A stretch of 64,000 nucleotides of DNA from an uncultured Planctomycetales bacterium (GTDB lineage: Bacteria > Omnitrophota > Gorgyraeia > Zapsychrales > JAHFFX01): contig CAZTCI010000006.1 of assembly GCA_964612665.1 (NCBI GenBank), positions 141,750 to 205,749 on the forward strand, in the 5' to 3' direction. Below, piece after piece: positions 39,454 to 60,032 of the stretch. The notes under the pieces were generated by a model, which saw only the letters and a program-made list of their open reading frames with translations, had not been told where the DNA came from and ran no database searches. How positions within the stretch are numbered: position 1 is the first letter of the stretch; each line of letters begins with the position of its first letter. The translations under genes and the position numbers were made by a program.

Positions 39454-39457
39454 TTTA

Positions 39458-39536: not shown

Positions 39537-39554
39537 AAAAAAAAGGAACTAACA

Positions 39555-40609: not shown

Positions 40610-40613
40610 AATG

Positions 40614-40730
40614 ACCAATAACCAAGATACAAACACCAAACAAATTCCAATATCCAAATTCGAATCTTCATTGGTTTGTGAATTGAATATTGAAATTTGG
40701 TAATTGTTTGGTGTTTGTATCTTGGTTATT
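40614..40730. repeat. 117-nt near-perfect palindromic element between nuoC and nuoD
   Basis: accaataaccaagatacaaacaccaaacaa at 40614-40643 versus aattgtttggtgtttgtatcttggttatt at 40702-40730, with a second nested inverted repeat (ccaaattc / gaaatttgg) in the loop. Confidence 0.75.
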
Positions 40731-40745
40731 AAATATTCTAAAGAT

Positions 40746-42068: not shown

Positions 42069-42176
42069 TAGACGAATAGACACAAGTAGAAATTCTAACG
42101 TGTGTCATGTGTCTGGCGTCTTGTGTCCTTAAAAGTTTAGGAGGCTTTTATTTCTACGAAGACTCTAATTCCAGAA

Positions 42177-42617: not shown

Positions 42618-42621
42618 ACCT

Positions 42622-43935
42622 ATGGAAAAAATAGTCACCCGACATTTTGATCAGCCTGAATCATACCGGATTGATTCCTATTTAAAAGATAAAGGCTACG
42701 AAGGCGCGCGTAAAGCACTGACCCAAATGACGCCCGCTCAGGTTATTGATGAGGTTAAGAAATCGAATTTGCGCGGGCTTGGCGGCGCAGGGTTCGCGAC
42801 GGGCATGAAATGGAGTTTTATTCCGAAAGACAACCCAAAACCCAAATATCTCGTCGTCAACGGTGATGAAGGCGAGCCAGGGACGTTTAAAGACAAATAC
42901 ATTTTGGAACTAGATCCGCACGCGTTGATCGAAGGGATGATTATTACCTGCTACGCGATTGGAAGCCATAAAGGTTATGTTTATATTCGCGGCGAATATT
43001 TAAAACAGATTGAAAGACTGCGCGCTGCGATCGCGGAAGCTTATCAAAAAGGATTTCTCGGTAAAAATATTATGGGAACGGGTTTCGATTTGGACATTGT
43101 TGTTCACCAAGGCGCCGGCGCTTATATCTGCGGTGAAGAAACCGCGCTCATTGAATCGCTCGAAGGGAAAAAAGGGTTCCCGCGTCTTAAACCGCCTTTC
43201 CCGGCGGTCGTTGGATTGTTCGGCTGCCCGACGGTGATTAATAACGTTGAAACCTTGGCGTGCGTTCCTCCGATTATTATGAATGGCGCGGAGTGGTATG
43301 CGAAATTGGGTTGCGAAAAAAACGGTGGGAACAGATTGTTTTGTATCAGCGGTCATGTGAATAGACCCGGAATCTATGAACTTCCCAATGGAACAACTTT
43401 GCGCGAAATTATTTATCAGCACGCCGGAGGCATTCGTAACGGCCGTCAGCTTAAAGCTGTCATTCCCGGCGGCATTTCAGCGCCGCTTTTAATACCCGAT
43501 CAGCTCGACGTGAAAATGGATTTCGATTCCCTCAAAGCGATTGGTTCAATGGCCGGTTCCGGCGGAATTATTGTTATGGATGAAACCACGTGCATGGTTC
43601 GTGCCGCCATGATTGCCGCACGGTTTTTTGCGCATGAATCCTGCGGCCAGTGTTCGCCGTGCCGTGAAGGGAGCGGATGGGTCTACCGCAATGTCAAACG
43701 CATTTTCGACGGAGAAGGACGTCCGTTGGATTTACAAAATTTACCCGGTATTGTGGGGAATATCGGCGGCAACACGATCTGCGCGTTCGGGGATGCGGTC
43801 ACAATGTCCATCGGCAGTTACGTCCAAAAATTCCGCCATGAATTTGAACAGCATGTGAAAGACAAACGCTGTGGGCTTACAACCAATTTAAACTCGCCAG
43901 AGGCTGTGAAGGAATATGCCAAAGCTAACCATTGA
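42622..43935 (+). CDS. nuoF: NADH-quinone oxidoreductase subunit F (FMN, NADH-binding, 4Fe-4S)
   Basis: GLGGAGFATGMKW, GAGAYICGEETALIESLEG, ESCGQCSPCREG. Confidence 0.9.
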   Translation: MEKIVTRHFDQPESYRIDSYLKDKGYEGARKALTQMTPAQVIDEVKKSNLRGLGGAGFATGMKWSFIPKDNPKPKYLVVNGDEGEPGTFKDKYILELDPHALIEGMIITCYAIGSHKGYVYIRGEYLKQIERLRAAIAEAYQKGFLGKNIMGTGFDLDIVVHQGAGAYICGEETALIESLEGKKGFPRLKPPFPAVVGLFGCPTVINNVETLACVPPIIMNGAEWYAKLGCEKNGGNRLFCISGHVNRPGIYELPNGTTLREIIYQHAGGIRNGRQLKAVIPGGISAPLLIPDQLDVKMDFDSLKAIGSMAGSGGIIVMDETTCMVRAAMIAARFFAHESCGQCSPCREGSGWVYRNVKRIFDGEGRPLDLQNLPGIVGNIGGNTICAFGDAVTMSIGSYVQKFRHEFEQHVKDKRCGLTTNLNSPEAVKEYAKANH

Positions 43936-45505
43936 TGGACAAGAAATAGAAGTCCCGGCCGGCACAACCGTGATTCAGGCCGCGGAAAAATTGGGCATTA
44001 ATATTCCGCGCTACTGTTATCATCCGGCGCTGCCGATCGCCGGAAATTGCCGCATCTGCATGGTTGAAATTGAAAAACAACCCAAACTTCAGATCGCCTG
44101 CTACACGCAGGTCGCTGAAGGTATGGTTGTGAAAACCAATTCACCTAAAGTTCTTGAAACTCGGAAAACCGTTTTGGAATTTTTGCTCGTCAATCATCCG
44201 GTTGATTGCCCGGTCTGCGATCAGGCGGGCGAATGCAAGCTTCAAGATTATTACATGGAACACGGCAAATATAACAGCCGTTTGGAAGACGTTAAAGTCA
44301 AGAAACACAAAAAAGCTTTTTCAATCGGCCCGACGGTCATGCTGGATCAGGAACGCTGTATCCTTTGCACGCGCTGCGTTCGGTTTGCGGATAATATTAC
44401 GAAGACAAGTGAATTCGGTGTTTTTAACCGTGGTGATCATTCGGAACTTGATGTGACACCGGGTAAACAGTTTGATAATAATTATTCCGGAAACGTCGTC
44501 GACATTTGTCCAGTCGGCGCGTTGACCGATAAAGATTTCCGTTTCAAATGCCGTGTTTGGTATTTGAGTAATACTAAATCCGTGTGCCCAGGCTGCAGCG
44601 CGGGATGCAATATTAATATCGATTGGGACAAATCGCGTCCGCACCTGCAGAAAAAAGCGCGCGTCATGCGGTTAAAGCCCCGGCATAATCCGGGCGTTAA
44701 TGATTATTGGATCTGTGATGTCGGCCGTTACAATTATCATTTTATCGACGAGAATAGAATTTTTTTTCCTCAGTATAAGAATGACATCGTTTCCTGGGAC
44801 CAGGCGGCTGAGATGGTTGTTCAAACCCTTAAAGCGCTCAAAGATTCGGGCCACAGCGATAGAATCGGTATAATAGCATCCCCTCAATTAACCAACGAAG
44901 ATCTTTTCGCCGTCCGAAAATTATTTAAAGACAATTTGAAAATTGCTAACGTCGATTTCCGAGTCCCTGAACCGCCGGGCAAAGCGGATAACTTCCTTCT
45001 TAAAGCGGACAGAAATCCTAACACCGCCGGCGCCAAAGCGATTTTAGGTCAAGAAGGCAGCGATGCGCAACAGACAATTGAAAAAGCCAAGAAAGGTGAC
45101 ATCGATCTTTTATATGTCTTCGGTCATGACCTGGTCAATCTTTTCGGCAAAGTTGCCGTCGAGGAAATCGCAAAAAAAGTCAGGCTCTTTGTTTTTCAGG
45201 GGAGTAACGTGAATGAAACCTGCAGTTACGCGCATTTGATTTTGCCAAGCGCGGTGTACGCTGAAAAAGACGGAACGTTCACCAATTGCCAAGAGCGTGT
45301 CCAACGGATTTGGCCGGCTTTTATGCCGTTAGGTGAAAGTAAAGGCGACTGGGAAATTCTTTCGACATTGGCCCAGAAATTGGGAATCCAATTGGGATTT
45401 AAAAAGTCCGAGGATATTTTTAAGGAAATCGCAAAGTCCGTCGGGGCGTTTTCTGAAATGAATTACGAAAAAATTGCTGATCAAGGTATGGTGTTGAAAA
45501 AATAA
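43916..45505 (+). CDS. nuoG: NADH-quinone oxidoreductase subunit G (short form)
   Basis: N-terminal 2Fe-2S CYHPALPIAGNCRICMVE, HPVDCPVCDQAGEC, CILCTRCVRF. Confidence 0.85.
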   Translation: MPKLTIDGQEIEVPAGTTVIQAAEKLGINIPRYCYHPALPIAGNCRICMVEIEKQPKLQIACYTQVAEGMVVKTNSPKVLETRKTVLEFLLVNHPVDCPVCDQAGECKLQDYYMEHGKYNSRLEDVKVKKHKKAFSIGPTVMLDQERCILCTRCVRFADNITKTSEFGVFNRGDHSELDVTPGKQFDNNYSGNVVDICPVGALTDKDFRFKCRVWYLSNTKSVCPGCSAGCNINIDWDKSRPHLQKKARVMRLKPRHNPGVNDYWICDVGRYNYHFIDENRIFFPQYKNDIVSWDQAAEMVVQTLKALKDSGHSDRIGIIASPQLTNEDLFAVRKLFKDNLKIANVDFRVPEPPGKADNFLLKADRNPNTAGAKAILGQEGSDAQQTIEKAKKGDIDLLYVFGHDLVNLFGKVAVEEIAKKVRLFVFQGSNVNETCSYAHLILPSAVYAEKDGTFTNCQERVQRIWPAFMPLGESKGDWEILSTLAQKLGIQLGFKKSEDIFKEIAKSVGAFSEMNYEKIADQGMVLKK

Positions 45506-45536
45506 AATTGTTGTAGAAATGTCACTTATCGTTGGT

Positions 45537-45621
45537 CGGTTTCGTAGCTCGTATCGTCTTTCGGTTGTGGTGACGTCCGAACCGTAACCCCAAACGATTA
45601 CCGATACGAGCTACGAAACCG
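45537..45621. repeat. Intercistronic 20-bp inverted repeat between nuoG and nuoH
   Basis: cggtttcgtagctcgtatcg at 45537-45556 versus cgatacgagctacgaaaccg at 45602-45621, with a nested cggtt/aaccg hairpin in the loop. Confidence 0.75.
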
Positions 45622-45656
45622 ATAGTCATTCAACTCAACCTAACATCTAAGCAAAT

Positions 45657-46736
45657 ATGAACGATATCTTAATCAAACTCATCTTAAGCTGCGGCACGAT
45701 ATTTATGATGTTTAATATCGCCGGGCTTTTGACGTGGGTTGAGCGAAAGCAAAGCGCGGTCATGCAGGACCGTATCGGCGCGAACCGTGCGAAAATTTTT
45801 GGATTCAAGGCGATGGGGCTTTTCCATGCGATCGCGGATGTTTTGAAGATGCTTAGCAAAGAAGAGTTTATGCCTAATGGCGCGAATAAATTTTTATTTA
45901 ACCTGGCGCCGTATTTGTCAGTTGTTTTCGCGTTGGTGGGTTTTGCCGCGATTCCCATCGGCGATAGGTTAATCGTGGGCGGCCATGCTATCGAACTTCA
46001 AGCGGCGAACATTAATATTGCGCTGCTTTTTATTTTTGCGATGATGTCGATGGGCGTTTATGGCGTTGTGTTGGCCGGTTTCTCGTCCAATAACAATTAC
46101 GCGTTTCTGGGAGGCTTGCGCGGGGCGGCGCAAATGATTGCTTACGAAATCACAATGGGCGCGGCCATTATGGGTGTGATTATGGTTTTTAATTCGCTCG
46201 ATCTTCAACATCTTGTGCGCGCGCAAGGTGCTTATCTTTTCGGCTGGCTTCCGAAATGGGGTGTTTTCGTTCAACCACTCGCGTTTATTTTATTTTTGAC
46301 CGCTGCAACCGCTGAAACAAAGCGTATTCCATTCGACCTTCCCGAAGGCGAATCCGAAATCATTGGTTATTTTGTGGAATATAGCGGCATGAAGTTCGGC
46401 ATGTTTTTTCTGGCGGATTTGGTTGAAACAGTTTTGGTTTCATCTTTGATGACAACGCTATTTTTAGGCGGCTGGCAGGTGCCGTATCTTTTTCCCGACG
46501 GGTTTCATTTCCCGTGGGGCATGCAGCTCGCGCTTTCGAACTTTACTGTTGTTTTCTTAGGTTTGCTGGCATTTTTTATTAAACTTAGTTTCTTCATTTG
46601 GCTTTTAATGTCGATCCGCTGGACTTTACCGAGATTTCGTTATGATCAGCTCATGTATCTCGGCTGGAAAATTCTTTTGCCGGCTTCTTTAGTGAACATC
46701 GCCATTACGGCTGTCATTATAACGTTACTAAGGTAA
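45657..46736 (+). CDS. nuoH: NADH-quinone oxidoreductase subunit H
   Basis: Eight-TM ND1 homologue: VMQDRIGANRA..., GWLPKWGVF..., ETKRIPFDLPEGESE. Confidence 0.9.
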   Translation: MNDILIKLILSCGTIFMMFNIAGLLTWVERKQSAVMQDRIGANRAKIFGFKAMGLFHAIADVLKMLSKEEFMPNGANKFLFNLAPYLSVVFALVGFAAIPIGDRLIVGGHAIELQAANINIALLFIFAMMSMGVYGVVLAGFSSNNNYAFLGGLRGAAQMIAYEITMGAAIMGVIMVFNSLDLQHLVRAQGAYLFGWLPKWGVFVQPLAFILFLTAATAETKRIPFDLPEGESEIIGYFVEYSGMKFGMFFLADLVETVLVSSLMTTLFLGGWQVPYLFPDGFHFPWGMQLALSNFTVVFLGLLAFFIKLSFFIWLLMSIRWTLPRFRYDQLMYLGWKILLPASLVNIAITAVIITLLR

Positions 46737-46740
46737 TAAA

Positions 46741-47352
46741 ATGGAAAATACAAATACAACTCAAGAACGTCGAAAAGAATTAGAAAAGTATTTTGATGTT
46801 AAGGGCGTCTTTTCATTTTTACGTTTGGCGCAGATGAAACGGGCATGGAGACAAACGAACCGCCGGGAATTGACCTGGTGGGAAAGCACTTATATTCCGT
46901 CGGTGGCGCTGGGTATCTGGATCACTTCAAAACATTTTTTTCGTAATTTGAGCCTACATATTCTTCATCTGTTTGGTCTTTATAAAGATGTTCCCGCTGC
47001 GGTCACTTATCAATATCCCGAACAACCGCGTCCATTGGCCAAACGTTTAAGGACACGCCATCGTTTGATGAAACGTGAAGACGGTTCGCCGCGCTGTGTC
47101 GCTTGCATGATGTGCGAAACCGTCTGTCCGGCACGCTGTATTCAAATCACCGCCGCCGAACATCCTGATCCTAACATTGAAAAATATCCCGCCGAATTCG
47201 TCCTCGATTTAGGTAAATGTGTTTACTGCGGTTTTTGCGTCGAGGTTTGTCCGGAAGACGCGATCCGTATGGATACCGGCAAACTCGATACCTCCGAATA
47301 TTCCCGTGAAAGCATGATTTATAATAAGAAACGGTTGATGGAAGAATCGTAG
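46741..47352 (+). CDS. nuoI: NADH-quinone oxidoreductase subunit I (2x 4Fe-4S) with N-terminal extension
   Basis: CVACMMCETVCP and CVYCGFCVEVCP ferredoxin motifs. Confidence 0.85.
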   Translation: MENTNTTQERRKELEKYFDVKGVFSFLRLAQMKRAWRQTNRRELTWWESTYIPSVALGIWITSKHFFRNLSLHILHLFGLYKDVPAAVTYQYPEQPRPLAKRLRTRHRLMKREDGSPRCVACMMCETVCPARCIQITAAEHPDPNIEKYPAEFVLDLGKCVYCGFCVEVCPEDAIRMDTGKLDTSEYSRESMIYNKKRLMEES

Positions 47353-47392
47353 GGTTCAATTCTAAACCTTTCCAATCGAGCGCATTCAAATC

Positions 47393-48559
47393 ATGTCTGT
47401 TCATTTCACCTCCACAATTGAATTTCAGATCAGTCTCTTATTGTTCGTGGCCATCGTCGGGTATTTGATCGCGACACGCATTAATCAATCGCCGGTTATT
47501 GGCCAGATTTTGGCAGGGATTCTGATCGGCCCTAGTTTGCTCAATCTTATTACGTACACTGATTTCATCAGAAGCATGGCCCAATTGGGCGCGGTCATTT
47601 TGCTTTTTGTGATTGGACTGGAATTTAAATTAAAGGATATTTTTAACGTCCGTTATACCGCGATTGCTTTGGTGGGCGTTATAGTTCCATGGATCGGCGG
47701 ATTTTTAACCGGAAAAGCTTTCGGTTATAGTTTCGACAATGCTGTCTTTATCGGCACAGCGCTTACCGCAACAAGCATCGCTATTACCGCTAATGTTCTT
47801 AAGGAAATGAATAAACTCAAAACCGAAGCGGCCAAAGCGATCATGGGTGCGGCTATCATCGACGATGTTTTGGCACTCTTAGCGCTTTCGTTATCTAAAC
47901 AAGTTGTAAATGGAACATTTTCTCTCGCGGCTGCTATTGTGCCAATTATTAAAGCTCTTTTGTTTTTGGTGGTCGGAATTTATTTGGGACAGAATTTTTT
48001 TAGGAGACTGATTGAACGGGCGGATGAAACAGTCGCTTTGCAAAAATATCCAGAGTTTGTTTTCATTTTTACGATGGCCTTTGCATTTGTTTATGCGATG
48101 GCCGCGGAACTTCTTAATCTATCAGCGATCGTTGGTGCTTTTCTCGCCGGCATTTCGCTTGAGGGGGCGGTCATTTGTAACAGTAAGAATTATAAAGAAG
48201 GTGCGGAATATCTGCGGATTATTTTCGCGTCGATTTTTTTTGTTTCGCTGGGTGTTCTTGTTGATGTGCGGGCGGTGACACAAGCTGTCATATGGTTTGT
48301 TATCGCATTAACCGTTGTTGCGGTTCTGACAAAAGTCATCGGATGTTTTGTGCCGGCGAAGCTGCAGGGGATGTCAACGAAAGACGCAGCTATTGTTGGC
48401 GTCGGTATGTCGCCGCGAGGAGAAGTCGCGATGATTGTTGGGCTTATCGGTCTAAACCAAGGCATTATCCATCAAGAAATTTATGCCGCCATTATTCTTA
48501 TGAGTATAATAACAACCATCCTTACGCCCATCATTCTTCAAAATTGGCTGTATAAATAA
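47393..48559 (+). CDS. Monovalent cation:proton antiporter (CPA/Na+-H+ exchanger family) sited between the two nuo blocks
   Basis: About 12 TM helices; N-terminus SLLLFVAIVGYLIATRINQSPVIGQILAGILIGPSLL typical of Kef/NhaP-type exchangers. Confidence 0.8.
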   Translation: MSVHFTSTIEFQISLLLFVAIVGYLIATRINQSPVIGQILAGILIGPSLLNLITYTDFIRSMAQLGAVILLFVIGLEFKLKDIFNVRYTAIALVGVIVPWIGGFLTGKAFGYSFDNAVFIGTALTATSIAITANVLKEMNKLKTEAAKAIMGAAIIDDVLALLALSLSKQVVNGTFSLAAAIVPIIKALLFLVVGIYLGQNFFRRLIERADETVALQKYPEFVFIFTMAFAFVYAMAAELLNLSAIVGAFLAGISLEGAVICNSKNYKEGAEYLRIIFASIFFVSLGVLVDVRAVTQAVIWFVIALTVVAVLTKVIGCFVPAKLQGMSTKDAAIVGVGMSPRGEVAMIVGLIGLNQGIIHQEIYAAIILMSIITTILTPIILQNWLYK

Positions 48560-48608
48560 TTCAATTTAATAATTTAGGAACAAAGGACAATCAGAAAATT
48601 TTAAGTGA

Positions 48609-50045
48609 TTAGAATATTCCTTTGACAGCCGCAAGCGCGACTTCAAGGAAGGGGCCTTGGAAGATTCCAATACCAATAATTCCAGCGATGGCAACAGCGA
48701 GAATTATCTGGATAGGTAAAGAAACAGCAATGGCAGAAGTGTTTCGAGGCGGATCAACATAGATCCGTTTGACAACGATCAGATAGTAATAAAGCGAAAT
48801 GACGATGTTCATAGCAGCGACGAGCGCCAGCCATAGAAAACCGCTTTTGACAGCGGCCATTAATAACGTAAATTTACCAAAGAATCCCGCCAGCGGTGGA
48901 ATTCCGGCCAATGAAACAAGCGCCAGCAACAACACGACCGCCAAGATTCCCGAACGCTGCGCGAGCCCCGCATAATCTTCAAGCTCATCACTTTTGACCG
49001 CCACAAAAAATAAAACAATCACCGTAAACGCGGCGAGATTCGTAAACAAATATCCCAGCAAATAAAAATTAATCGCCGCAACACCGAGCGTTGACCCGGC
49101 GGCTGCGCCCATCAAAAGATATCCCGCGTGGCCGATGCTGGAATAACCCAGTAACCGTTTAATATTTTTCTGAAACATGGCGGCGCAATTTCCGTAACAC
49201 ATTGTAACCGCCGAAAGAACCGCGAAGACAGGAGCCCAGTGAATATGCCAGGCTGAAAAAACGCCTAAGAAAAGCCGAATCAAAATCACAAAACCTGCGG
49301 CCTTAGACCCGACGGACAATAATGCGGTCACCGGCGTCGGCGCGCCTTGATAAACATCCGGAACCCACAAATGAAACGGCACTGAGGCGATTTTAAAACC
49401 AACCGCGGAAAAAATCATGATTAAAGCAAACAAAATAACCGGACTGGCCGCGTGCGTCATCGCATAGGCGCGGATCGTTTCAAATCCTGTCGTGTGCGTA
49501 ATACCGTAAAGAAAACTAATGCCGTAAAGAAAAAAGCCCGACGACAAAGCACCAAGAATCAAATATTTCATCCCCGCTTCAAGAGAATGATGATCGCTTT
49601 TAAGATAGGCGGTCATGACGTAAAGGGAGATCGTCAGGATTTCAATTGAAATAAAAAGCAGAATAAAATCCGCGGAAGATACAATCAAACACATGCCGAG
49701 CAAAGCCAGCCATAATAAGAGATAGAATTCGTTCTTTGGCTGCTGCGAGGATTTGAAAAACTGCTGGGTCATCACAAAAACAAAAACCATCGCGATAAGA
49801 AAGAAACCTTTAAAGAACCAAGCCATCGGATCCATGATAAACATGCCGCCAAAAGTTTTCCCGGTAACATCGCTTTGGGTTAGCCAAAAACCGAGCATTA
49901 ACAAAAGCGCCGCTAAACTTAGATTCCCGATCCAGTCTTGACGGTTATTTTTGGGCAGAAACATGTCGACGAGAATCAGGATGACAAGCGTGATTGCGAT
50001 CAGTGTTTCTAAGGTGAATAAGTTCCAGTTAATTGTAGGAAACAT
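48609..50045 (-). CDS. nuoN: NADH-quinone oxidoreductase subunit N
   Basis: ND2-like polytopic protein at the distal end of the - strand J-K-L-M-N block. Confidence 0.85.
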   Translation of the reverse strand: MFPTINWNLFTLETLIAITLVILILVDMFLPKNNRQDWIGNLSLAALLLMLGFWLTQSDVTGKTFGGMFIMDPMAWFFKGFFLIAMVFVFVMTQQFFKSSQQPKNEFYLLLWLALLGMCLIVSSADFILLFISIEILTISLYVMTAYLKSDHHSLEAGMKYLILGALSSGFFLYGISFLYGITHTTGFETIRAYAMTHAASPVILFALIMIFSAVGFKIASVPFHLWVPDVYQGAPTPVTALLSVGSKAAGFVILIRLFLGVFSAWHIHWAPVFAVLSAVTMCYGNCAAMFQKNIKRLLGYSSIGHAGYLLMGAAAGSTLGVAAINFYLLGYLFTNLAAFTVIVLFFVAVKSDELEDYAGLAQRSGILAVVLLLALVSLAGIPPLAGFFGKFTLLMAAVKSGFLWLALVAAMNIVISLYYYLIVVKRIYVDPPRNTSAIAVSLPIQIILAVAIAGIIGIGIFQGPFLEVALAAVKGIF

Positions 50046-50089
50046 AGTTTATGCTTTCTTGCTAATCGGCCGAAATTTGGACCAGCTGT

Positions 50090-50197
50090 CTGCTCCCCGG
50101 CCCGCTGTATCCGGCGAAGCCGGGGCGGGCACGCGATCCTGTCTCCGCCTTTTCTTTAAGGGAGGTAGGCGGAGACAGGATCGAAGTTCGCTGACAG
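50090..50197. repeat. Copy A of a roughly 85-110-bp intergenic hairpin element present twice in the window (second copy at 58545-58630)
   Basis: gcgatcctgtctccgcc-ttttctttaagggaggt-aggcggagacaggatcg-aagttcgctgacag; about 80% identical to copy B, with base changes that preserve stem pairing. Confidence 0.75.
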
Positions 50198-50213
50198 TCA
50201 TCCGCAAAAGGCC

Positions 50214-51698
50214 CTACTTCAATTCTATACTTTGCGAAATTATTTTTACCGGTGCTTCAATATTTTTCAAAATAAAAGCCGGCCAGCATCCGGCTAAAAT
50301 TAACGCCGCTAATAACAGAATATATGGTAAGCGTTGTAAAGGTGTTGCCGCATCAACGAGTTTTCTCCACTGGGAATTCAACGGGCCTTGAAATGCCAGC
50401 CTGATTGTCTTAAGCATATAAACAGCGGTGATCACAATCCCTAACACCGCTAATATGGTTTCGGTTCGGTAATAATCCCAAGATCCTAAGAGGACCATGA
50501 TTTCTCCGACGAAGTTGGCGAATCCCGGAACACCGGCGGAAGCGAGCGCCGCCATGGCAAAACAAGTCGCGATAAACGGCATGGATTTGGCGATGCCGCC
50601 TAATTCTTCTAGATTTCGAGTTTTTGTTTGATCTGCCACGGAACCGATTAAAGCAAACGAAAGCGCCGCCATGATTCCGTGCGCAAACATTAAAAAGACA
50701 ACACCGTTTATACCAATAATATCTAAACAAGCCAAACCTAAAAGAATGTAGCCCATATGACTGCAGCTTGAATACCCTAATATATATTTAATATCCTTCT
50801 GAGTGAGCGCGACCAATCCACAAAAAATAATATTGATAGCCGCGAGATCAGCCACAATCGGCATCCAAATGTGAGCGGCCTGCGGCATGAGTTGAATTGC
50901 GAAGCGGAGGATTGCGTAGGCGCCGAGTTTTTTTAAGACTCCGGCGTGGAGCATGCTGATTGAGGTGGGCGCTTCGGCGTATCCGATCGGCGCCCACGTG
51001 TAAAATGGCCAGAGAGTTAATGTGATTCCAAATCCGACGACAATCAGCGGGAAGATCCAATTTTGGAGTTCCAATGGCAAAGGATGCTTAGCCAAATGCT
51101 GTTGGATTTGAATGAAATCAAATGTGTTTAAACCGGTAGAAAGATAAAGGCCGATTAAGCCGATTAGCGCCAACGAAGCGCCAGCGGTCAAATACAGTGT
51201 CAATTTCATGGCCGCATATTCTTTATGGTTGGTTCCCCAAATCGCAATCAGTAAAAACGCCGGGATCGCGGCGACTTCATGAAAGAAATAGAAAAAGAAG
51301 ATATCTAAAGAAAGAAAAGCACCGTAGGTGCCGGCCACAACGAGAAGTAAAAGGATGTAATATTCTTTAACGCGTTCTTTGATGCTGCGTGAAATTAAAA
51401 CCGCAGCCAAAGAACAAATCCCCAAAAGAAGGACGAGCACAGCATTGATACCATCGATCCCTAAATGGTACGAAATCCCAAAAGGTACGACCCAAGGCAT
51501 TTTGTCAATGAATTGGAATCCTCCGGCCGTGTGATCGTAAGCAACAAAAACCCACAATGACAAAAGCGATGACAACAGCGTACCAATCGTTGCAATCTTG
51601 CGGATCAAACAGATTTTTTCCGACGGGACTAATAGAATCAGCCAGGCGGCGGCTACCGGCAATAACAGAATCCAAGTAAGCGGATGAGGAATGCTCAT
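50214..51698 (-). CDS. nuoM: NADH-quinone oxidoreductase subunit M
   Basis: ND4-like; ...WPFYTWAPIGYAEAPT..., HMGYILLG. Confidence 0.85.
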   Translation of the reverse strand: MSIPHPLTWILLLPVAAAWLILLVPSEKICLIRKIATIGTLLSSLLSLWVFVAYDHTAGGFQFIDKMPWVVPFGISYHLGIDGINAVLVLLLGICSLAAVLISRSIKERVKEYYILLLLVVAGTYGAFLSLDIFFFYFFHEVAAIPAFLLIAIWGTNHKEYAAMKLTLYLTAGASLALIGLIGLYLSTGLNTFDFIQIQQHLAKHPLPLELQNWIFPLIVVGFGITLTLWPFYTWAPIGYAEAPTSISMLHAGVLKKLGAYAILRFAIQLMPQAAHIWMPIVADLAAINIIFCGLVALTQKDIKYILGYSSCSHMGYILLGLACLDIIGINGVVFLMFAHGIMAALSFALIGSVADQTKTRNLEELGGIAKSMPFIATCFAMAALASAGVPGFANFVGEIMVLLGSWDYYRTETILAVLGIVITAVYMLKTIRLAFQGPLNSQWRKLVDAATPLQRLPYILLLAALILAGCWPAFILKNIEAPVKIISQSIELK

Positions 51699-51729
51699 AG
51701 TTTAAATTACAAATAATTTAAAATTCAAT

Positions 51730-53571
51730 TTAAAAAACCATTACCAAAATCAACAAAACCACACCCCAAACAAAAACCAACGCATACGACTGGACTAATC
51801 CAGTCTGAAGTCTGCGGAATAATTCGCCGAGCGTTCTCGCCAGATTAATGACACCCCGCATACCAAAGCGGACGATAAAAAAACTTTCAAAATAGGCCAG
51901 CATGTTGGCGAAATTTTGCTGTACAAAATCTACATACCAGCTGTACACGGCATCGAAATAATATTTATTTTTTAAAACCGGATAGATAGCCCCAAGTTTT
52001 GTTTCCAAGGGATCGCTTGCGGGACGTTTGCTGTAAATAAGATATGAAACAGCTAACCCTAAAACCGCTGCGCCCGACGAGATAAACGCGATCTTCATGT
52101 TCATCGGCACATGGGATTCTTCTGGATATAAGAAATGTGGAATACCGATAAAACCTCCAATCACTGAAAGAACGGCTAGAAAAATCAGAGGAATCGTCAT
52201 AATAGCCGGCGATTCATGAACATGATGATCGTGATGCGTATCGTCGTTGCCCCAAAAAGCTGTCCAAAATAACCGTCCCATATAGAAAGCTGTTAAGGCC
52301 CCGGTAATTGTTCCTATCCAATAGAGAAGAACATTATGTTCAGCCGCTAAAGCGAGAATTTCATCTTTGCTCCAAAATCCGCTCAACGGAAAAATGCCGC
52401 AAAGTGCAAGCGTTCCGATAAGAAACGTGAATCCGGTTATCGGCATTGATTTGAGAAGTCCTTTCATTTTCCAAATATTTTGCTCATGATGCATCGCGTA
52501 AATAACACTGCCAGCGCCTAAGAAAAGAAGCGCTTTGAAAAACGCATGAGTCGTTAAATGATACATCCCTTGAAGCGGCCCGGCTAAACCTAAAGCCATG
52601 ACCATATAACCTAATTGGCTCAGTGTTGAATACGCGAGGATTCTTTTAATATCGTTTTCGACGATGGCGAGTGTTGCGGCCATGAAAGCGGTGATGGCGC
52701 CGATGTGCGCGATGATTGTTAACACAGTTGATAACGGCTGAAAAAGGAAAAAGGTTCGCGCCAAAAGATAAATACCTGCGGCAACCATGGTCGCCGCGTG
52801 AATAAGGGCGCTGACGGGCGTCGGCCCTTCCATAGCATCAGCCAGCCAGACGTGAAGCGGGACTTGCGCGGATTTTCCGACGACACCGCAGAAAATCAAA
52901 AGCGCCGCGGTTGTTAATAAATCTGGATGGATATGCGGTACAACGCTCGCTAAGCGCGTAAAAAGAAAACTCCTATCGCCTCCCGCGCCGGAAAGACTCC
53001 ATAACAAAATAATCCCCCAGAGAAATCCGAAATCCGCAACGCGATTAACTACGAAAGCTTTAACTCCGGCATCCGCCGCCGAAGGCTTCGCGTACCAAAA
53101 CCCAATCAAGAGATACGAACTTAAGCCCACGAGTTCCCAAAACATAAATAACTGAACAAAATTATTTGCCAAAACAATTCCAATCATTGAAAACGCGAAA
53201 AGGCTAAGGTAGGCAAAAAACCGCGGCATACTCGGATCATCCGCCATGTATCCTTTAGAGTAAATAAAAATGGCGCTTCCAACACCGGTCACAATCATGA
53301 GCATCATGATCGCCAGCGGATTGATGAGAACCCCGAAATCAATTGTCAGCCCATCAAAATGGATCCAGGATAGAGATTGTTGAACTTGAGCGGGAGGGGT
53401 GGTATTAAAAATTTGAGTGAAGAGTAAGACACAGCAGACAAAAGAGGTTAGAATCCCGGCAATCGCAATCAAGGAACTTAACACTTTTGAACGCAGAAAG
53501 AAAACTGTAATAAGAATGCACGCCACGAGCGGTGAAAACAACGCAATCCAAGCTAATTGTGGATTTACCAT
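51730..53571 (-). CDS. nuoL: NADH-quinone oxidoreductase subunit L
   Basis: ND5-like, 613 aa; LFMFWELVGLSSYLLIGFW, HAFFKALLFLGAGSVI. Confidence 0.9.
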   Translation of the reverse strand: MVNPQLAWIALFSPLVACILITVFFLRSKVLSSLIAIAGILTSFVCCVLLFTQIFNTTPPAQVQQSLSWIHFDGLTIDFGVLINPLAIMMLMIVTGVGSAIFIYSKGYMADDPSMPRFFAYLSLFAFSMIGIVLANNFVQLFMFWELVGLSSYLLIGFWYAKPSAADAGVKAFVVNRVADFGFLWGIILLWSLSGAGGDRSFLFTRLASVVPHIHPDLLTTAALLIFCGVVGKSAQVPLHVWLADAMEGPTPVSALIHAATMVAAGIYLLARTFFLFQPLSTVLTIIAHIGAITAFMAATLAIVENDIKRILAYSTLSQLGYMVMALGLAGPLQGMYHLTTHAFFKALLFLGAGSVIYAMHHEQNIWKMKGLLKSMPITGFTFLIGTLALCGIFPLSGFWSKDEILALAAEHNVLLYWIGTITGALTAFYMGRLFWTAFWGNDDTHHDHHVHESPAIMTIPLIFLAVLSVIGGFIGIPHFLYPEESHVPMNMKIAFISSGAAVLGLAVSYLIYSKRPASDPLETKLGAIYPVLKNKYYFDAVYSWYVDFVQQNFANMLAYFESFFIVRFGMRGVINLARTLGELFRRLQTGLVQSYALVFVWGVVLLILVMVF

Positions 53572-53867
53572 TTTAAGTCCTTTAATTCATCAGCTTGAAT
53601 GGTTGAGAAATGACGGAACATCAAAACAACAATCGCCAGCCCGATCGCAACTTCCGCAGCAGCGACGAGAATCACAAAGAAAACAACCAGCTCTCCGGTG
53701 TAATCGCCGTTAAACCGTGAGAAAGCGACAAAAGAAAGATTCGATGCCGCCAATAAAAGTTCTAAGGAAAGAAGGATCTTAAGCACGTTGCGGCTAGTCA
53801 CGACGCCCATAATGCCGATCGAAAAAAGAACGCCGCTTAAAAGAATATATTGTGAAAGTCCAATCAT
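53565..53867 (-). CDS. nuoK: NADH-quinone oxidoreductase subunit K
   Basis: 100-aa three-TM ND4L homologue with LELLLAASNL... and AAAEVAIGLA. Confidence 0.9.
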   Translation of the reverse strand: MIGLSQYILLSGVLFSIGIMGVVTSRNVLKILLSLELLLAASNLSFVAFSRFNGDYTGELVVFFVILVAAAEVAIGLAIVVLMFRHFSTIQADELKDLKW

Positions 53868-54409
53868 GTGTTTCCTGTCATCTTTTTCATTTCCTGCGCT
53901 TTATCCCAGGCTGTTTCCATGGCGCCTTTGGCCAAAGAAACAATTCCGAATATGGCAATAAATAAGAGAAATGAGGTTAATTCAAAAGGAAGAAGATAAT
54001 TGGTAAAAATAATTTTGCCGATGACTTCAATGGTGCCGCGGATCGAAGACGGCGGCATTGTTTGAGCGGCTAAAAAGCTTTTGGTCAACATGAGAAAGCT
54101 CGACAGAAACATGAGCCCAACAACACCGCCGAGCAATCGAAAACGGGCTTGTTTAATTGTGGTGTGCGCATCCGCGTTTAGATTTAAACACATTACAACA
54201 AAGAGGAAAAATACCAAGACCGCGCCTGCATACACTAATAAAAGAATAATGCCGACGAAGAAAGCCTCCATCTGCATAAATAGAGAAGCAAGGGAAAAGA
54301 TGGCGAGGACCAGCGACAAAACATTATAAAGAGGATTTTTAGAAAGGACGACAGAAAGCGCCGCCAAAATTAAAACAGTCGCAAAAAGATAGAAAAAAGC
54401 AGAAGCCAT
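53864..54409 (-). CDS. nuoJ: NADH-quinone oxidoreductase subunit J
   Basis: ND6-like; ATGA overlap with nuoK. Confidence 0.85.
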   Translation of the reverse strand: MASAFFYLFATVLILAALSVVLSKNPLYNVLSLVLAIFSLASLFMQMEAFFVGIILLLVYAGAVLVFFLFVVMCLNLNADAHTTIKQARFRLLGGVVGLMFLSSFLMLTKSFLAAQTMPPSSIRGTIEVIGKIIFTNYLLPFELTSFLLFIAIFGIVSLAKGAMETAWDKAQEMKKMTGNT

Positions 54410-54657: not shown

Positions 54658-55143
54658 ATGGAATTCTTAAAAGCCTTCGGGATACAGGATTCAAAAGACA
54701 AGCATCACAAGCAGATCATCTATGGCCTGGCGTTGATTTACAATCTCATTTACGACGCCATGGCTAATTTTTTTCAGGAATATGATTTAACGCCGGGCAA
54801 ATTCAATATTCTGATGGTCATCAAACATCAAGGCAAAGACCAGGGCATTGCGCAAGTTGAAATCGGCAAGCACCTCATCCTAACGCCATCCAATATGACG
54901 AAATTGATTGATAAATTAGAGAAGGAAGGGCTCGTTGAGCGGTCGGCGTTAAAAGGGGATCGAAGAGTTAACTTGACTAAGATTACCAAAAAAGGTTCCG
55001 ATCTCCTGGAACGCGTTTGGGAAGCTTATAACAAAAAATTATTAGCCTTAACCGCTTCGCTTAATAAAGAAGAACAAAAAGCATTGGCCAAATTGCTGGT
55101 CGCGTGGCTTAAAGAGATGAAAGGAGAAGCGGACCTTGGCTAA
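54658..55143 (+). CDS. MarR-family transcriptional regulator
   Basis: PGKFNILMVIKHQGKDQGIAQVEIGKHLILTPSNMTKLIDKLEKEGLVERSALKGDRRVNLTKITKKG winged HTH. Confidence 0.8.
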   Translation: MEFLKAFGIQDSKDKHHKQIIYGLALIYNLIYDAMANFFQEYDLTPGKFNILMVIKHQGKDQGIAQVEIGKHLILTPSNMTKLIDKLEKEGLVERSALKGDRRVNLTKITKKGSDLLERVWEAYNKKLLALTASLNKEEQKALAKLLVAWLKEMKGEADLG

Positions 55144-58100
55144 GAGTTTGAAACAACTGGGATTCAAAGCGCTTTTGGTGACTCAATTCCTCGAAGCCTT
55201 TAACGACAACGCTTTAAAGTTCGTCGTGACTTTTGTGGCGATTGATTATTTTACGAAAAGTAATTTGGGAAATCTTTTCGTGTCTTTGGCCGGCGCTGTT
55301 TTTATTCTTCCCTTTTTATTATTTTCAACCTACGCCGGTTATTTGGCGGACCGGTTTAGTAAAAAGAAAATTCTTGTTACCGCGAAGATCGCTGAACTTT
55401 TCATTCTCACCTTTGGTTTGATTGCGTTCATTCAAATCAATATGACCGGAATGTTGGCAGTTTTATTTTTGATGGGACTGCACAGCGCGTTTTTTAGCCC
55501 GTCGAAGTATGCGATTCTGCCGGAAATTTTGGATAAAGATGATCTCTCCGAAGGTAATGGGCAGATGCAGATGTGGACTTACGCGGCGATTATTTTGGGA
55601 CAGGCGTGCGGCGGTTATCTCTTACAGTTATTTAACGCCGCGCTTTTTAAAACGTATTTTGTTTTTATAGGCATTGCCGTTGTTGGGATTGTTACCAGTT
55701 TATTCATTCCAACCGTTCGCCCGTCGGGATCGAAGCGCCCGATGGCATGGAACTTCCTTAAAGAAATCGCCGGTAATGTTTCTTTCGTAAAGACCAATCG
55801 AACCATATTTCTTTCAATCGTGGCGTTGGTTTATTTTTCTTTTCTAGGCGGAATCTTTCAGCCAAACATTCTTCTGTACGCACGAAACATGATGGGCGTA
55901 GATCCGTTTCTTTCTAGCATTCTGCTGGTGAGTATCTCGTTGGGAATCGGCATCGGAAGTTTAATGGCCGGGCGTTTTTCAGACCAGAAAATTGAATTGG
56001 GATTGGTGCCATTTGGAGCGATTGGCCTCAGTATTTTCTCAATCGTACTTGGATTTAGTTATCATTCTTTTTACAACGTTTTTCTAACCTTGTTTTTACT
56101 TGGTATGTCGAGCGGATTTTACATTGTTCCTTTAAATACACTCGTGCAGTATGAAAGTCCCGCCGATCAACGCGGGCGTATCATTGCGACGAATAATTTC
56201 TTTTCCTTCCTGGCGATTCTTGTCGCATCATTATCGATTTATCTTTTTGGCGAAGTTCTAAAAATCAATCCAGCTAAAACATTTGTTATCTTAGGTGTCG
56301 TCACCATTGGGGGAACGATTTACATCTGTCGTTTACTACCGTATGCGCTGGTACGGTTGTTTGTTTGGCTTTTGACGCACACGCTTTATAAAATCCGTGT
56401 CATCGATAAAAATAATGTCCCGGCGCAGGGCGGCGCGTTGTTGGCTTCCAATCATATTTCTTATCTCGACGCTGTTTTGCTGGTTGTGACCGTACAGCGT
56501 CCGATCCGGTTTTTGATGAGCCGGGAAGTTTATGAGAACAGTATTTTTAAATTTCTTTTTAAAATCGGCCGCGCGATTCCCATTAATTCAACTGATAATC
56601 CCAAAGAAATCATCCGCGCGTTGCACACCGCCAAAGAAGCGTTGAAAGCCGGCGAACTGGTTTGCATTTTTCCCGAAGGCCATTTAACGCGCACTGGAAA
56701 CACTTTGAAGTTTAACGCCGGTGTCGAACACATTGTCAAAGGTGTCGACACGCCGATTATTCCGGTCAATCTCGACCGCATTTGGGGAAGTATTTTCAGC
56801 TGGGAACGCGGCAAATTCCTTTATAAGTGGCCGAAAATTATTCCTTATCCCGTGACGGTTTCGTTTGGAAAGCCACTTCCGTCGACAACGAACGCATTTG
56901 AAATCCGTTCGAAGGTCATGGAATTGGGAGCGGATGCTTTTCAATACCGTTTGGAAGATAAATTAACTTTGCCGGAAAGTTTTTGGCGTGAAGCGCGGAA
57001 ACATCCGCAGAAATTTTGTATCGGCGATTCAACCGGTAAAAAATTGGATTATGGTATGACGCTCGTGTCAGCCGTTGTCATCGCCTCAAAAATTCGCGTC
57101 CGGCTCGATCAAGAGAAAACCGTCGGCATATTAATCCCTCCGTCGGTAGGCGCAGCGCTGGTTAATATCGCAGTTTCTTCTTTAAATAAAGTTCCGGTGA
57201 ATATAAATTACACGTCCTCAAAAGAAGCCATTCAATCAATTGTTAAACAATGCGCCATGCAATACGTGATCACCTCGCGCGTTTTTTTAGAAAAAATCGG
57301 AATTGAAATTACTTGCGAGAAAATTTTTATCGAAGACATTGTGGCAAGCATTTCAAAGATGGATCAACTTAAGGCCTTCGGCGTGGCGTTCGCGTTTCCG
57401 TCGGTATTGTCCCATCGATTAATCTTCGGTCCCAAAGCCTGCCGCGAACATGAGAAGCTCGCCACGATTATGTTCACGAGCGGCAGCACCGGCGAGCCCA
57501 AAGGTGTCATGCTCACTCATGGCAATGTCATCTCCAACTTGGAAGGGCTTTATCAAGTTTTTAATATTCAGAAGAACGACGTGATGGTTGGCATTTTACC
57601 GTTTTTTCATTCGTTTGGTTTTACCGGCACACTGTGGTTTCCTTTGATTACCGGCATTGGCGCTGTTTATCACAACAATCCATTGGATGCGAAAGTCATT
57701 GGAAAATTAATTGCGGAATATAAAGTGACGATTTTAATGACGACACCGACCTTTCTTAGTTCCTATATCCGCCGCTGTGAGCCGAAACAATTTAAAAGTT
57801 TGCGGATGGTGACCGTCGGCGCGGAGAAGTTAAAAGAAAATTTGGCTGAGGAATTTAAAAATAAATTTGGGCTGGAGCCGATGGAAGGTTACGGCTGCAC
57901 GGAACTATCGCCGGTTGTTTCGATCAATTTGCCGGACAACGAACGGGAAGGCTCGTTACAGAAAGCGCACAAGCGCGGCACAATTGGTCTGCCGCTGCCG
58001 GGAATCGCGATTAAAATTCTTGATCAAAATTCCAGCGAGCCGCTAGGAGCAAATCAAAATGGTTTATTGTTTGTCAAGGGACCGAACGTCATGAAAGGTT

Positions 58101-58534
58101 ATTTGAATCAACCGACCAAAACGGATGAAGTCATTAAAGACGGCTGGTATTACACGGGCGACATTGCGCAGATGGATGAGGACGGATTCATAACGATCAC
58201 CGACCGCTCGAGCCGTTTCAGTAAAATCGGCGGAGAAATGGTGCCGCACATCAGGGTCGAAGAAGCGATTCATAAAATCCTTAACGCCTCAGAACAAATC
58301 GCGGTTGTGACTTCAATTCCCGATGATAAAAAAGGAGAACGGCTTGCCGTTTTTTACGCCAAAGATATCGATATGCCTGATTTGATCGCCAAATTAAAAA
58401 ACGACGGCTTGCCGAATCTCTGGATTCCGGACAAAGATTTATTCGCCAAAATCGATGCGCTTCCCTTATTAGGCAGCGGCAAATTGGATTTAGGCACAAT
58501 CAAACGCAAAGCGCAGGAAGTTTTTCTTAACTGA
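55136..58534 (+). CDS. aas: Tri-domain fusion: MFS lysophospholipid transporter (LplT-like) + PlsC-type acyltransferase + acyl-ACP synthetase/AMP-ligase (Aas-like)
   Basis: Residues about 1-400 have 12 TM helices of an MFS transporter. About 400-620 has the PlsC motifs LASNHISYLDAVLL and FPEGHLTRTGN. About 620-1132 has the AMP-binding motifs TSGSTGEPKGVMLTH, YGCTE, and GWYYTGD. Confidence 0.8.
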   Translation: MAKSLKQLGFKALLVTQFLEAFNDNALKFVVTFVAIDYFTKSNLGNLFVSLAGAVFILPFLLFSTYAGYLADRFSKKKILVTAKIAELFILTFGLIAFIQINMTGMLAVLFLMGLHSAFFSPSKYAILPEILDKDDLSEGNGQMQMWTYAAIILGQACGGYLLQLFNAALFKTYFVFIGIAVVGIVTSLFIPTVRPSGSKRPMAWNFLKEIAGNVSFVKTNRTIFLSIVALVYFSFLGGIFQPNILLYARNMMGVDPFLSSILLVSISLGIGIGSLMAGRFSDQKIELGLVPFGAIGLSIFSIVLGFSYHSFYNVFLTLFLLGMSSGFYIVPLNTLVQYESPADQRGRIIATNNFFSFLAILVASLSIYLFGEVLKINPAKTFVILGVVTIGGTIYICRLLPYALVRLFVWLLTHTLYKIRVIDKNNVPAQGGALLASNHISYLDAVLLVVTVQRPIRFLMSREVYENSIFKFLFKIGRAIPINSTDNPKEIIRALHTAKEALKAGELVCIFPEGHLTRTGNTLKFNAGVEHIVKGVDTPIIPVNLDRIWGSIFSWERGKFLYKWPKIIPYPVTVSFGKPLPSTTNAFEIRSKVMELGADAFQYRLEDKLTLPESFWREARKHPQKFCIGDSTGKKLDYGMTLVSAVVIASKIRVRLDQEKTVGILIPPSVGAALVNIAVSSLNKVPVNINYTSSKEAIQSIVKQCAMQYVITSRVFLEKIGIEITCEKIFIEDIVASISKMDQLKAFGVAFAFPSVLSHRLIFGPKACREHEKLATIMFTSGSTGEPKGVMLTHGNVISNLEGLYQVFNIQKNDVMVGILPFFHSFGFTGTLWFPLITGIGAVYHNNPLDAKVIGKLIAEYKVTILMTTPTFLSSYIRRCEPKQFKSLRMVTVGAEKLKENLAEEFKNKFGLEPMEGYGCTELSPVVSINLPDNEREGSLQKAHKRGTIGLPLPGIAIKILDQNSSEPLGANQNGLLFVKGPNVMKGYLNQPTKTDEVIKDGWYYTGDIAQMDEDGFITITDRSSRFSKIGGEMVPHIRVEEAIHKILNASEQIAVVTSIPDDKKGERLAVFYAKDIDMPDLIAKLKNDGLPNLWIPDKDLFAKIDALPLLGSGKLDLGTIKRKAQEVFLN

Positions 58535-58544
58535 CGAACAGACT

Positions 58545-58630
58545 TCCGCGGCCGGCTGTTTACTCAGGCGATCCAGTTCCCGCCTTTCTGTAAAGAAGGT
58601 AGGCGGGAGCTGATCGGAGTTCGTTGACAG
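58545..58630. repeat. Copy B of the intergenic hairpin element (see 50090-50197)
   Basis: gcgatccagttcccgcc-tttctgtaaagaaggt-aggcgggagctgatcgg-agttcgttgacag. Confidence 0.75.
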
Positions 58631-58659
58631 CCACCGTGAAAGTCTTGAGCAGCCTACTA

Positions 58660-59400
58660 ATGACGAACCAAATTGTAAAAACCCTAAAAGCCGCAGATAA
58701 TCACCTTGTCCATTGTGATTTGTACGCTAGAAATTCCGACAAACTAATCATCATCGCCCCAGGATTTTTTAACAGTAAACAAGCGTTGCTCATGAAAGAT
58801 CTGGCCCAAAGTTTGAATGATAACTATGACGCGATGATTGTAGATTTCCGCGGTCATGGGCAAAGTAAAGGATGGTTTTATTGGACGAGCAAAGAATATC
58901 TGGATCTGCTGGCGGTCTTTGAATATGCTAAACAACATTACAAGAAAGTCGGCCTCGTCGGATTTTCTTTGGGTGCGGCGACGAGTTTGATTGCTTTTTC
59001 CAAATCGGACGTTGTTGATTCGGTCATTGCGGTAAGCGCCCCATCGGCATTTGAAAAGATTGAATTTTATTTTTGGCAATTGAATTTCAAATTGGATATC
59101 CAATACAGTCTTTTCAGCGAAGGCCGCATTGGCAAGGGCGTCAGGCCCGGGCCTTTTTGGTTGCCGAAGGAAAAACCGCGGGATGTTGTCGCGATTTTGC
59201 AGCGACCTGTTTTTTACATTCATGGTGCGGACGACTGGCTTATCAAGCCCTGGCATTCTCAATTGTTGTATGAAAAAACCGCCTCCAAAATAAAAAAATT
59301 CGAAATCATCAAAACCGCCCCGCACGCCGAATATATGATGAAAACGCATCGTAAAGAGTTTATAAAGCTGATTCGAGATTGGTTTCAAGAAACGTTATAA
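58660..59400 (+). CDS. Alpha/beta-fold hydrolase
   Basis: GFSLGAATS nucleophile elbow (GxSxG) with Asp/His further downstream. Start set at the first ATG after repeat element B; the track ORF begins at 58624 with TTG. Confidence 0.65.
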   Translation: MTNQIVKTLKAADNHLVHCDLYARNSDKLIIIAPGFFNSKQALLMKDLAQSLNDNYDAMIVDFRGHGQSKGWFYWTSKEYLDLLAVFEYAKQHYKKVGLVGFSLGAATSLIAFSKSDVVDSVIAVSAPSAFEKIEFYFWQLNFKLDIQYSLFSEGRIGKGVRPGPFWLPKEKPRDVVAILQRPVFYIHGADDWLIKPWHSQLLYEKTASKIKKFEIIKTAPHAEYMMKTHRKEFIKLIRDWFQETL

Positions 59401-59962: not shown

Positions 59963-60032
59963 ATACGACTAGTCGAATTCGCGGCGATTCGTGTATCATT
60001 AGCGGCAATTCGCGTTAATAAGGAGAAATAAA

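Follow-up and report, generated by a model that had tools for sequence, protein, structure and literature searches.

Two copies of a probable REP/MITE-like palindromic element at intercistronic junctions of an Omnitrophota genome

Two unrelated intercistronic junctions of an Omnitrophota genome each carry a copy of the same long palindromic sequence. Within the window, the whole 64-kb stretch of DNA that was analysed, copy A lies in the complex I (nuo) gene cluster and copy B lies between an aas-type fusion gene and an alpha/beta hydrolase gene. Both are probably instances of a single short palindromic element of the REP/MITE kind, one that is dispersed and non-autonomous and has no coding function. 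Such an element would be mobilised in trans, would keep its foldback either for the sake of mobility or by correction at the DNA level, and would be carried passively in the transcripts of the operons that it had entered.

The gene context of both copies is well defined (Table 1). Those NuoN homologues that bear names come from metagenome-assembled genomes (MAGs) of Candidatus Omnitrophica/Omnitrophota, and identical proteins are present in a 228-kb NCBI MAG contig and in the Logan assemblies of runs SRR12313477-80. The two sites named in the original prediction are borne out by domain content: nuoM and nuoN are two Proton_antipo_M genes that follow nuoJ-K-L on the minus strand, with copy A between them, and copy B follows, on the plus strand, a gene of the MFS-acyltransferase-AMP-binding type. 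The nuoJ-N transcript carries copy A in antisense, and the aas-hydrolase transcript carries copy B in sense orientation.

The complex I genes as a whole (39100-54409) form two convergent blocks, nuoA-I on the plus strand and nuoJ-N on the minus strand, separated by a Na+/H+ exchanger gene. The convergent layout is common to related contigs, in which the middle genes differ. At the other locus, the longest open reading frame of the hydrolase begins at a TTG (58624) inside copy B, and the ATG at 58660 is supported as the start by an independent Logan gene call (246 aa) and by the N-termini of orthologues. An inserted element could in this manner mislead the prediction of start codons.

Table 1. 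Genes and element parts at the two sites and in their surroundings (positions in the window)
Feature	Position	Strand	Basis and remarks
nuoA-I	39100-47352	+	Pfam and neighbourhood data
Na+/H+ exchanger gene			After nuoA-I, before nuoN; Pfam and neighbourhood data
nuoN	48609-50045	-	
nuoM	50214-51698	-	
nuoL, nuoK, nuoJ		-	Follow nuoM in this order
MarR-family regulator		+	Between the nuoJ-N block and the aas-type fusion
aas-type fusion	55136-58534	+	MFS-acyltransferase-AMP-binding
Alpha/beta hydrolase	58660 (probable ATG start)		Followed by rpiB, 6PGD, G6PD
Copy A, whole inserted element	50068..50218 (approximate limits)	+	Within the 168-nt nuoM/nuoN spacer (50046-50213); dG -83 kcal/mol
Copy A, left outer arm GGCCGAAATTTGGACCAGCTGTCTGC	50068..50093	+	Imperfect pairing with 50190-50213 (MFE structure)
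Copy A, GC-rich local hairpin segment	50094..50132	+	Alignments, fold
Copy A, inner stem-loop	50134..50183	+	50134-50150 paired with 50167-50183; 17 perfect pairs, 16-nt loop
Copy A, conserved tail AAGTTCGCTGACAG and right outer arm	50184..50213	+	
Copy A, right-end motif CCTACT	50213..50218	+ (AGTAGG on -)	Contains the nuoM stop TAG
Copy A, right end			Overlaps the nuoM stop codon
Left direct repeat TGACGAAC, 8 nt	58532..58539	+	Contains the aas stop TGA
Copy B, whole inserted element	58540..58660	+	Between the TGACGAAC direct repeats; fills the 125-nt aas/hydrolase spacer; dG -58.5 kcal/mol
Copy B, left outer inverted repeat AGACTTCCGCGGCCGGCTGTTTAC	58540..58563	+	Pairs with 58623-58645 (MFE structure)
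Copy B, inner stem-loop	58569..58616	+	58569-58585 paired with 58601-58616; 16 pairs, one bulged C, one G-U
Copy B, conserved tail GAGTTCGTTGACAG and right outer inverted repeat GTTGACAGCCACCGTGAAAGTCT	58617..58645	+	Right repeat 58623-58645
Copy B, right tail TGAGCAGCCTACTA	58646..58659	+	Includes the shared end motif CCTACT (58653-58658)
Right direct repeat TGACGAAC, 8 nt	58661..58668	+	Overlaps the hydrolase start ATG 58660-58662

The two copies, both on the plus strand in a direct reading of the sites, are homologous. Identity between their cores (50131-50199 in A, 58566-58632 in B) is about 78%: a blastn alignment of 50130-50210 and 58565-58642 gives 77.8% across 81 nt (E ~1e-11 to 1e-12), and by the same program the sequences that flank the two copies are unrelated. 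In the whole window the 19-mer GATCGRAGTTCGYTGACAG is found at 50179-50197, at 58612-58630 and nowhere else; 0.04 occurrences are expected in shuffled sequence, and none of 100 shuffles reached two matches. In a gapped local alignment the homology can be traced from about 50092 to 50218 in copy A and from about 58544 to 58658 in copy B. Even the hexamer CCTACT is found just twice in the 64 kb, both strands counted, and stands at the equivalent ends of A and B, so the homology genuinely extends to the right end. The original description of two elements of about 85 bp with about 80% identity was thus right as to homology and short as to extent, since copy B measures ~106-121 nt and copy A ~150 nt.

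The previously proposed start of copy A, at 50090, takes in a GC-rich hairpin (50094-50132) that is specific to copy A and absent from copy B; that segment may be an internal duplication or an insertion within copy A. Since its first 19 nt can be aligned with the left outer arm of copy B, only some 16-35 nt, depending on the alignment, are an extra GC-rich segment missing from B. The element has a GC content of 56-58%, against ~43% for the genome. Both copies are reproduced exactly in independent Logan assemblies from several runs, which rules out an assembly artefact. They have diverged by 22%, and so give no sign of recent mobility.

In its compact form, represented by copy B, the element folds back over its full length, with imperfect outer inverted repeats of 23-24 nt around an inner stem-loop; the corresponding outer arms of copy A (50068-50093 with 50190-50213) are weaker. 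The ends read AGACTTCCGCGG... and ...GCCTACT. On the right, both copies terminate in GCC(C)TACT, of which the other strand reads GTAG. Two further dyads are conserved, a GATC pair at the base of the stem and CGAA-N-TTCG in the tail. Open reading frames over the element are spurious ones only, and it is without coding capacity. The folds are far stronger than those of shuffled controls on either strand (z-scores -4.2 to -6.5), and in a sliding 100-nt scan copies A (-64 kcal/mol) and B (-51 kcal/mol) are among the most extreme positions of the window (mean -19.7, sd 6.2).

The inner hairpins are 4-6 kcal/mol more stable as plus strand (-37.3 against -33.3 kcal/mol in A, -29.7 against -23.8 kcal/mol in B), an advantage that arises because the non-Watson-Crick pairs are G-T rather than A-C on that strand. 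Although host transcription uses one strand at copy A and the other at copy B, it is the plus strand that folds better at both. This weak asymmetry therefore suggests a feature of the element, for example a single-stranded DNA intermediate or an RNA in element sense, rather than a function in host mRNA. The proposal that the element functions in either orientation is not supported by this comparison: A and B share the same DNA orientation, both fold better as plus strand, and the direction of host transcription is all that differs between them.

The strongest argument for mobility comes from the corresponding junctions of relatives. Here nuoM and nuoN are separated by 168 nt. In three contigs from related Omnitrophota, with NuoN proteins 76-78% identical, the two genes are 8 nt apart (L004), 22 nt apart (L007) or overlap by 17 nt (L009). 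Likewise, aas and the hydrolase gene are 125 nt apart here, and in relatives with hydrolases 65-74% identical they share an ATGA overlap (L082, L084) or are 8 nt apart (L080, L081). A covariance model built from the two cores (R1) finds nothing in the nuo and aas/hydrolase loci of these relatives. With junctions of 168 nt against an overlap to 22 nt in relatives, and of 125 nt against an overlap to 8 nt, comparison of the loci shows both copies to be lineage-specific insertions into unrelated, formerly tight junctions. Arrival at two such junctions argues for a dispersed insertion element and against a regulatory hairpin that evolved locally. The REP/MITE-like character suggested at the outset is upheld by these insertions, placed as they are at junctions that overlap or are 8-22 nt wide in relatives.

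The way in which such an element would have spread can be outlined. It would move by transposition, in trans, with the enzyme encoded elsewhere in the genome. At copy B, the 8-bp TGACGAAC may be a target-site duplication through which the stop codon of aas and the start codon of the hydrolase were restored: an ATGA-type overlap, if ancestral and duplicated, would have left just such a pair of repeats, one holding the aas TGA and the other overlapping the hydrolase ATG. A flanking repeat of this type, of at least 8 nt, is met at ~2.4% of random window positions. The geometry of terminal repeat and target duplication is not clean, as the right outer repeat of copy B stops 15 nt short of the direct repeat and leaves 14-15 nt of element between the two. 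The best flanking repeat of copy A is 6 nt long and lies inside nuoM, and is no convincing target duplication. Once inserted, the element would be transcribed within the operon mRNA, in antisense for copy A and in sense for copy B, where it would form a read-through intercistronic stem-loop with at most side effects on stability, processing or translational coupling. Its hairpin would be retained because the mobilising enzyme requires it, or by palindrome correction at the DNA level, and not through any need of the host for a terminator.

Structural alignment of the inner stems bears out the claim that three stem positions differ on both arms with pairing preserved. These are position 7 (T-A in A, A-T in B), position 10 (C-G, T-A) and position 11 (T-A, C-G); position 9 has changed on one side only (T-A against T-G), and position 6 is C-G in A and a bulged C in B. 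By our own calculation we infer a chance of ~2e-4 that all three 5'-arm changes would meet their exact complement among four 3'-arm substitutions, a figure that assumes independent arms, an assumption violated by DNA-level processes that keep palindromes. An RNAalifold covariation check recovers the three pairs changed on both sides, and shuffled sequences do as well in 114 of 500 cases, with two sequences giving neither the shuffle control nor formal covariation statistics any power. Pairing in the stem is maintained, at an RNA or a DNA level that two sequences do not separate. The original prediction read the compensatory changes as a sign that secondary structure is under selection. Real as the changes are, with two sequences and possible maintenance at the DNA level that argument was overstated. 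Palindromes can be kept paired at the DNA level through template switching (PMC8794818), and transposition that requires a single-stranded DNA hairpin can be another cause of the same kind.

The main rival of a mobile element is an RNA stem-loop between cistrons that is under selection because it blocks 3'-5' exonucleases or serves RNase III/E as a processing site, and thereby sets the expression of nuoJ-M relative to nuoN and of aas relative to the hydrolase. Such a role is compatible with a mobile origin; as the explanation of the two copies it is unlikely. It would agree with the three compensated stem positions, with a sole wobble in the main stem of copy B that is G-U on the transcribed strand, with the many strong hairpins between co-directional genes (nuoA/B, nuoC/D, nuoG/H, rpiB/6PGD, 6PGD/G6PD), and with REPs and Correia elements, which are known to act so (PMC3733652, PMC2649163). 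However, A and B stand opposite relative to transcription and present different loops and tails in the two mRNAs, the G-T pairs that extend the A stem become C-A mismatches in nuo mRNA, and the same junctions measure only 0-22 nt in relatives. Covariation, moreover, has no statistical power with two sequences, and a stem-loop of this sort would account for a role after insertion but not for homologous copies at unrelated loci. The same gap besets an account without selection, in which template-switch mutation (quasi-palindrome correction) keeps the palindrome perfect in two old neutral copies. Template switching creates and maintains perfect hairpin stems and gives apparent compensatory substitutions in one step (PMC8794818, PMC5453318); the stem of copy A is perfect across 17 bp, and positions 10 and 11 are adjacent, so that a single event is possible. 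Yet the bulge and the wobble in B were left uncorrected, and the spread to two loci is unexplained, which makes this process a complement of the mobile element rather than a replacement for it, and improbable as the whole account.

The remaining alternatives fare worse. An intrinsic, factor-independent terminator or attenuator, as the original prediction allowed, would suit a stable GC-rich stem-loop just downstream of coding regions, but no T-run follows the inner or the outer stem on either strand at A or B: the sequences after the stems are GATCGAAGTTCG and GATCGCGTGCCC in A and GATCGGAGTTCG and GATCGCCTGAGT in B, none of them T-rich. A terminator scan gave no call at the element except a weak, artefactual one in the 5' arm of copy A. 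Copy A also lies inside the nuoJ-N gene run, between nuoM and nuoN, where termination would sever nuoN from the rest of the transcript, and copy B lies between aas and a hydrolase gene that abuts or overlaps aas in relatives; a terminator is therefore implausible and scarcely deserves credence. Slightly less remote, and still very improbable, is that a palindrome bound by a DNA-binding protein, such as a regulator, gyrase or a nucleoid protein, was recruited to both loci. REP/BIME elements are bound by IHF and gyrase, and this precedent speaks for such a site, as do the two conserved dyads of stem base and tail. Against it, the middle of the stem co-varies where a sequence-specific site would be expected to be conserved, the 17-bp arms, 16-nt spacer and outer arms far exceed the size of an operator, and neither copy is in a promoter region.

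Rfam 15 returned no match at gathering score over the whole window, and at E values up to 10 the two sites drew generic microRNA-hairpin models only, with at most 28 bits against gathering scores of 76-100. The element holds no promoter-like site: TTGACA or CTGACA in the tail is without a -10 hexamer at a suitable distance. On consensus features, an integron attC site was dismissed because the core sites do not match, a group II intron domain V because of mismatch to the consensus, and a retron because there is no reverse transcriptase nearby.

The probable mobile element has been found in these two copies alone. With filters off, R1 recovers A and B from the 64-kb window and nothing else, the next best match being an unrelated hairpin at 59908 (E 0.05). 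No further copy was present in ~10 kb of the same genome beyond the window ends, for a total of two copies in ~74 kb. Nor was another copy found in 218 kb of related and same-genome loci. In the GTDB one-genome-per-species set, which does not include this genome, the tail 19-mer has two matches, both unrelated; its 61 JGI metagenome matches and its 5 matches among viral contigs likewise lack the element. Plasmid and phage collections gave no blastn match to the element. As for a mobilising enzyme, no transposase, RAYT or integrase domain (no Y1_Tnp) was found among ~47 window ORFs scanned against Pfam, and none in precomputed Pfam matches on Logan gene calls for the other nuo genes (nuoA-L).

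Two observations that might have been taken for further copies were set aside. A family of soil sequences that shares the 19-mer, with a short hairpin followed by GATCGAAGTTCGTTGACAGC, was rejected as a relative and regarded as coincidence: it is high in GC, unrelated beyond the motif, resembles a -35 promoter context and was selected by the motif. In the five metagenome contigs of this family (L014, L024, L037, L038, L050) a conserved high-GC intergenic motif consists of a short hairpin (GAACGTG...CACGTTC), then GGATCGAAGTTCGTTGACAGC, then other blocks that are also conserved. This motif, to which Rfam has no match, may belong to a promoter or leader in some group of soil bacteria. The other observation concerns assembly breaks. 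In three runs the Logan contigs break off within copy A (50107-50136), but Logan contigs also end in an unrelated GC hairpin (59901-59953) and read through copy B, so these breaks are not evidence of repetition; they track strong hairpins, which are not necessarily repeats.

Among known systems, the nearest are two. REPs and REPINs are repetitive extragenic palindromes that bear a GTAG tag and owe their mobility to RAYT tyrosine transposases (PMC3733652, PMC8266576). Like them, the element is non-coding and palindromic and has an extragenic position between unidirectional genes, immediately downstream of coding sequence and in either orientation relative to transcription, with its stem kept paired; GTAGG, with an unpaired GTAG, stands on the minus strand at one end of both copies (50213-50218, 58653-58658), the whole element forms a larger hairpin as REP doublets (REPINs) do, and one strand folds better, as expected of an element handled as single-stranded DNA. 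Unlike them, it has an inner stem-loop of 48-50 nt and a foldback of 106-150 nt, well beyond the 20-40 bp of a REP palindromic unit (PMC3733652); its GTAG is found at one end only, 0-8 nt from the outer stem; there are just two copies in ~74 kb and no RAYT gene in the window; and the possible 8-bp target duplication would not fit an HUH/Y1 mechanism.

Miniature elements (MITEs) such as the Correia elements of Neisseria (PMC2649163, PMC10969869, PMC2229807) resemble it in other ways: they measure 100-150 bp and contain no ORF, a size range and lack of coding that the element shares, their terminal inverted repeats let the transcript form a long hairpin, they insert at intergenic or intercistronic sites, and they can be co-transcribed and influence neighbouring genes. 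At 106-150 nt, the element also falls within the 50-500 bp typical of MITEs. Empty orthologous sites in relatives add to the likeness, and the direct repeat that flanks copy B may do so too. On the other hand, the terminal repeats and target duplication are imperfect in their geometry here, the element is GC-rich rather than AT-rich, and the window holds no parent insertion sequence. The particular features of Correia elements, namely 26-bp terminal repeats, TA duplication, an IHF site and promoter-forming ends (PMC2649163, PMC10969869, PMC2229807), are none of them seen in A or B. Intrinsic terminators and intercistronic stabilising stem-loops share with the copies a stable GC-rich stem-loop right after a stop codon, but A and B are without a U-tract, lie inside operons in both orientations, and are dispersed homologous sequence, not locally evolved. 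Hairpins made by template switching have similarly perfect long stems and clustered two-sided changes that preserve pairing (PMC8794818), but that mechanism acts in place and does not move a 120-nt sequence to a second locus. The element is best described as working like a REP or a MITE, and is not assigned to a named family.

The window contains other structured intergenic regions. The nuoA/nuoB spacer (39454-39554, 101 nt) holds an 84-nt near-perfect palindrome (39454-39538; CGCGAAT-rich, dG -52 kcal/mol), and the same gap is 10-22 nt in three related genomes; judged from these comparisons it is apparently a second inserted hairpin, unrelated in sequence to A and B. The rpiB/6PGD spacer (59974-60021) is related to it (77% over 48 nt, E 2e-6, both orientations), and on this similarity the two appear to be a second two-copy repeat family in the window. 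Close by, at 59904-59948, a GC-rich near-perfect hairpin of 19-20 bp (GAAGACCACCCCAACCCC/GGGGTTGGGGTGGTCTTC) overlaps the 3' end of rpiB, and Logan contigs L011 and L085 end within it. Two more long nuo hairpins lie between nuoC and nuoD (40617-40730) and between nuoG and nuoH (45531-45625), one AT-rich and ~115 nt, the other ~95 nt, dG -51. Between nuoG and nuoH there are 151 nt here, whereas relatives range from an overlap to 49 nt, and the nuoC/D gap varies from 25 to 160 nt among relatives. The 6PGD/G6PD spacer (60938-60999), which separates two pentose-phosphate genes of the same direction, also folds into a strong hairpin (dG -32.5, z -7.4). It seems that intercistronic hairpins are general in this genome.

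Elsewhere in the window, GC-rich multi-stem regions occupy long ORF-free gaps at 6840-7000 (gap 6752-7111, dG -64.6 kcal/mol) and 17530-17690 (gap 17421-17760, dG -57.8 kcal/mol); neither has an Rfam match at gathering score, and they may be unannotated non-coding RNAs or leaders. A stretch of 924 nt (15660-16583), between a 439-aa unknown ORF and an ABC-3 permease gene, has no ORF of at least 70 aa on either strand.

In all, at least seven long intercistronic hairpins fall within ~22 kb (39.4-61.0 kb). Four of these lie at nuo junctions that are at most 25 nt wide in at least one relative, and in all three relatives for nuoA/B and nuoM/N. A more ambitious joint reading would make A and B one type in a genome-wide set of long intercistronic hairpins. 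In it, a GTAG-tagged REP variant of unusually large size, in a PVC-group phylum, would be mobilised strand-specifically in the form of single-stranded DNA and be used by the host as operon 'punctuation' (mRNA processing or stability), and insertion would regenerate the stop and start codons of once-overlapping genes. In this full combination it is a long shot.

Compensated stem changes in a two-copy DNA palindrome are, alone, no sign of a functional RNA. Short-read assemblies break at repeats of this kind, and Logan contigs stop at these hairpins; the repeats can also mislead gene callers, and they mark disrupted translational coupling between the genes of an operon. The practical value of the finding is modest. 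Omnitrophota are known from metagenomes alone, and no publication linking the phylum with small palindromic repeats was found in the literature; if confirmed genome-wide, the element would give the phylum its first described family of such repeats.
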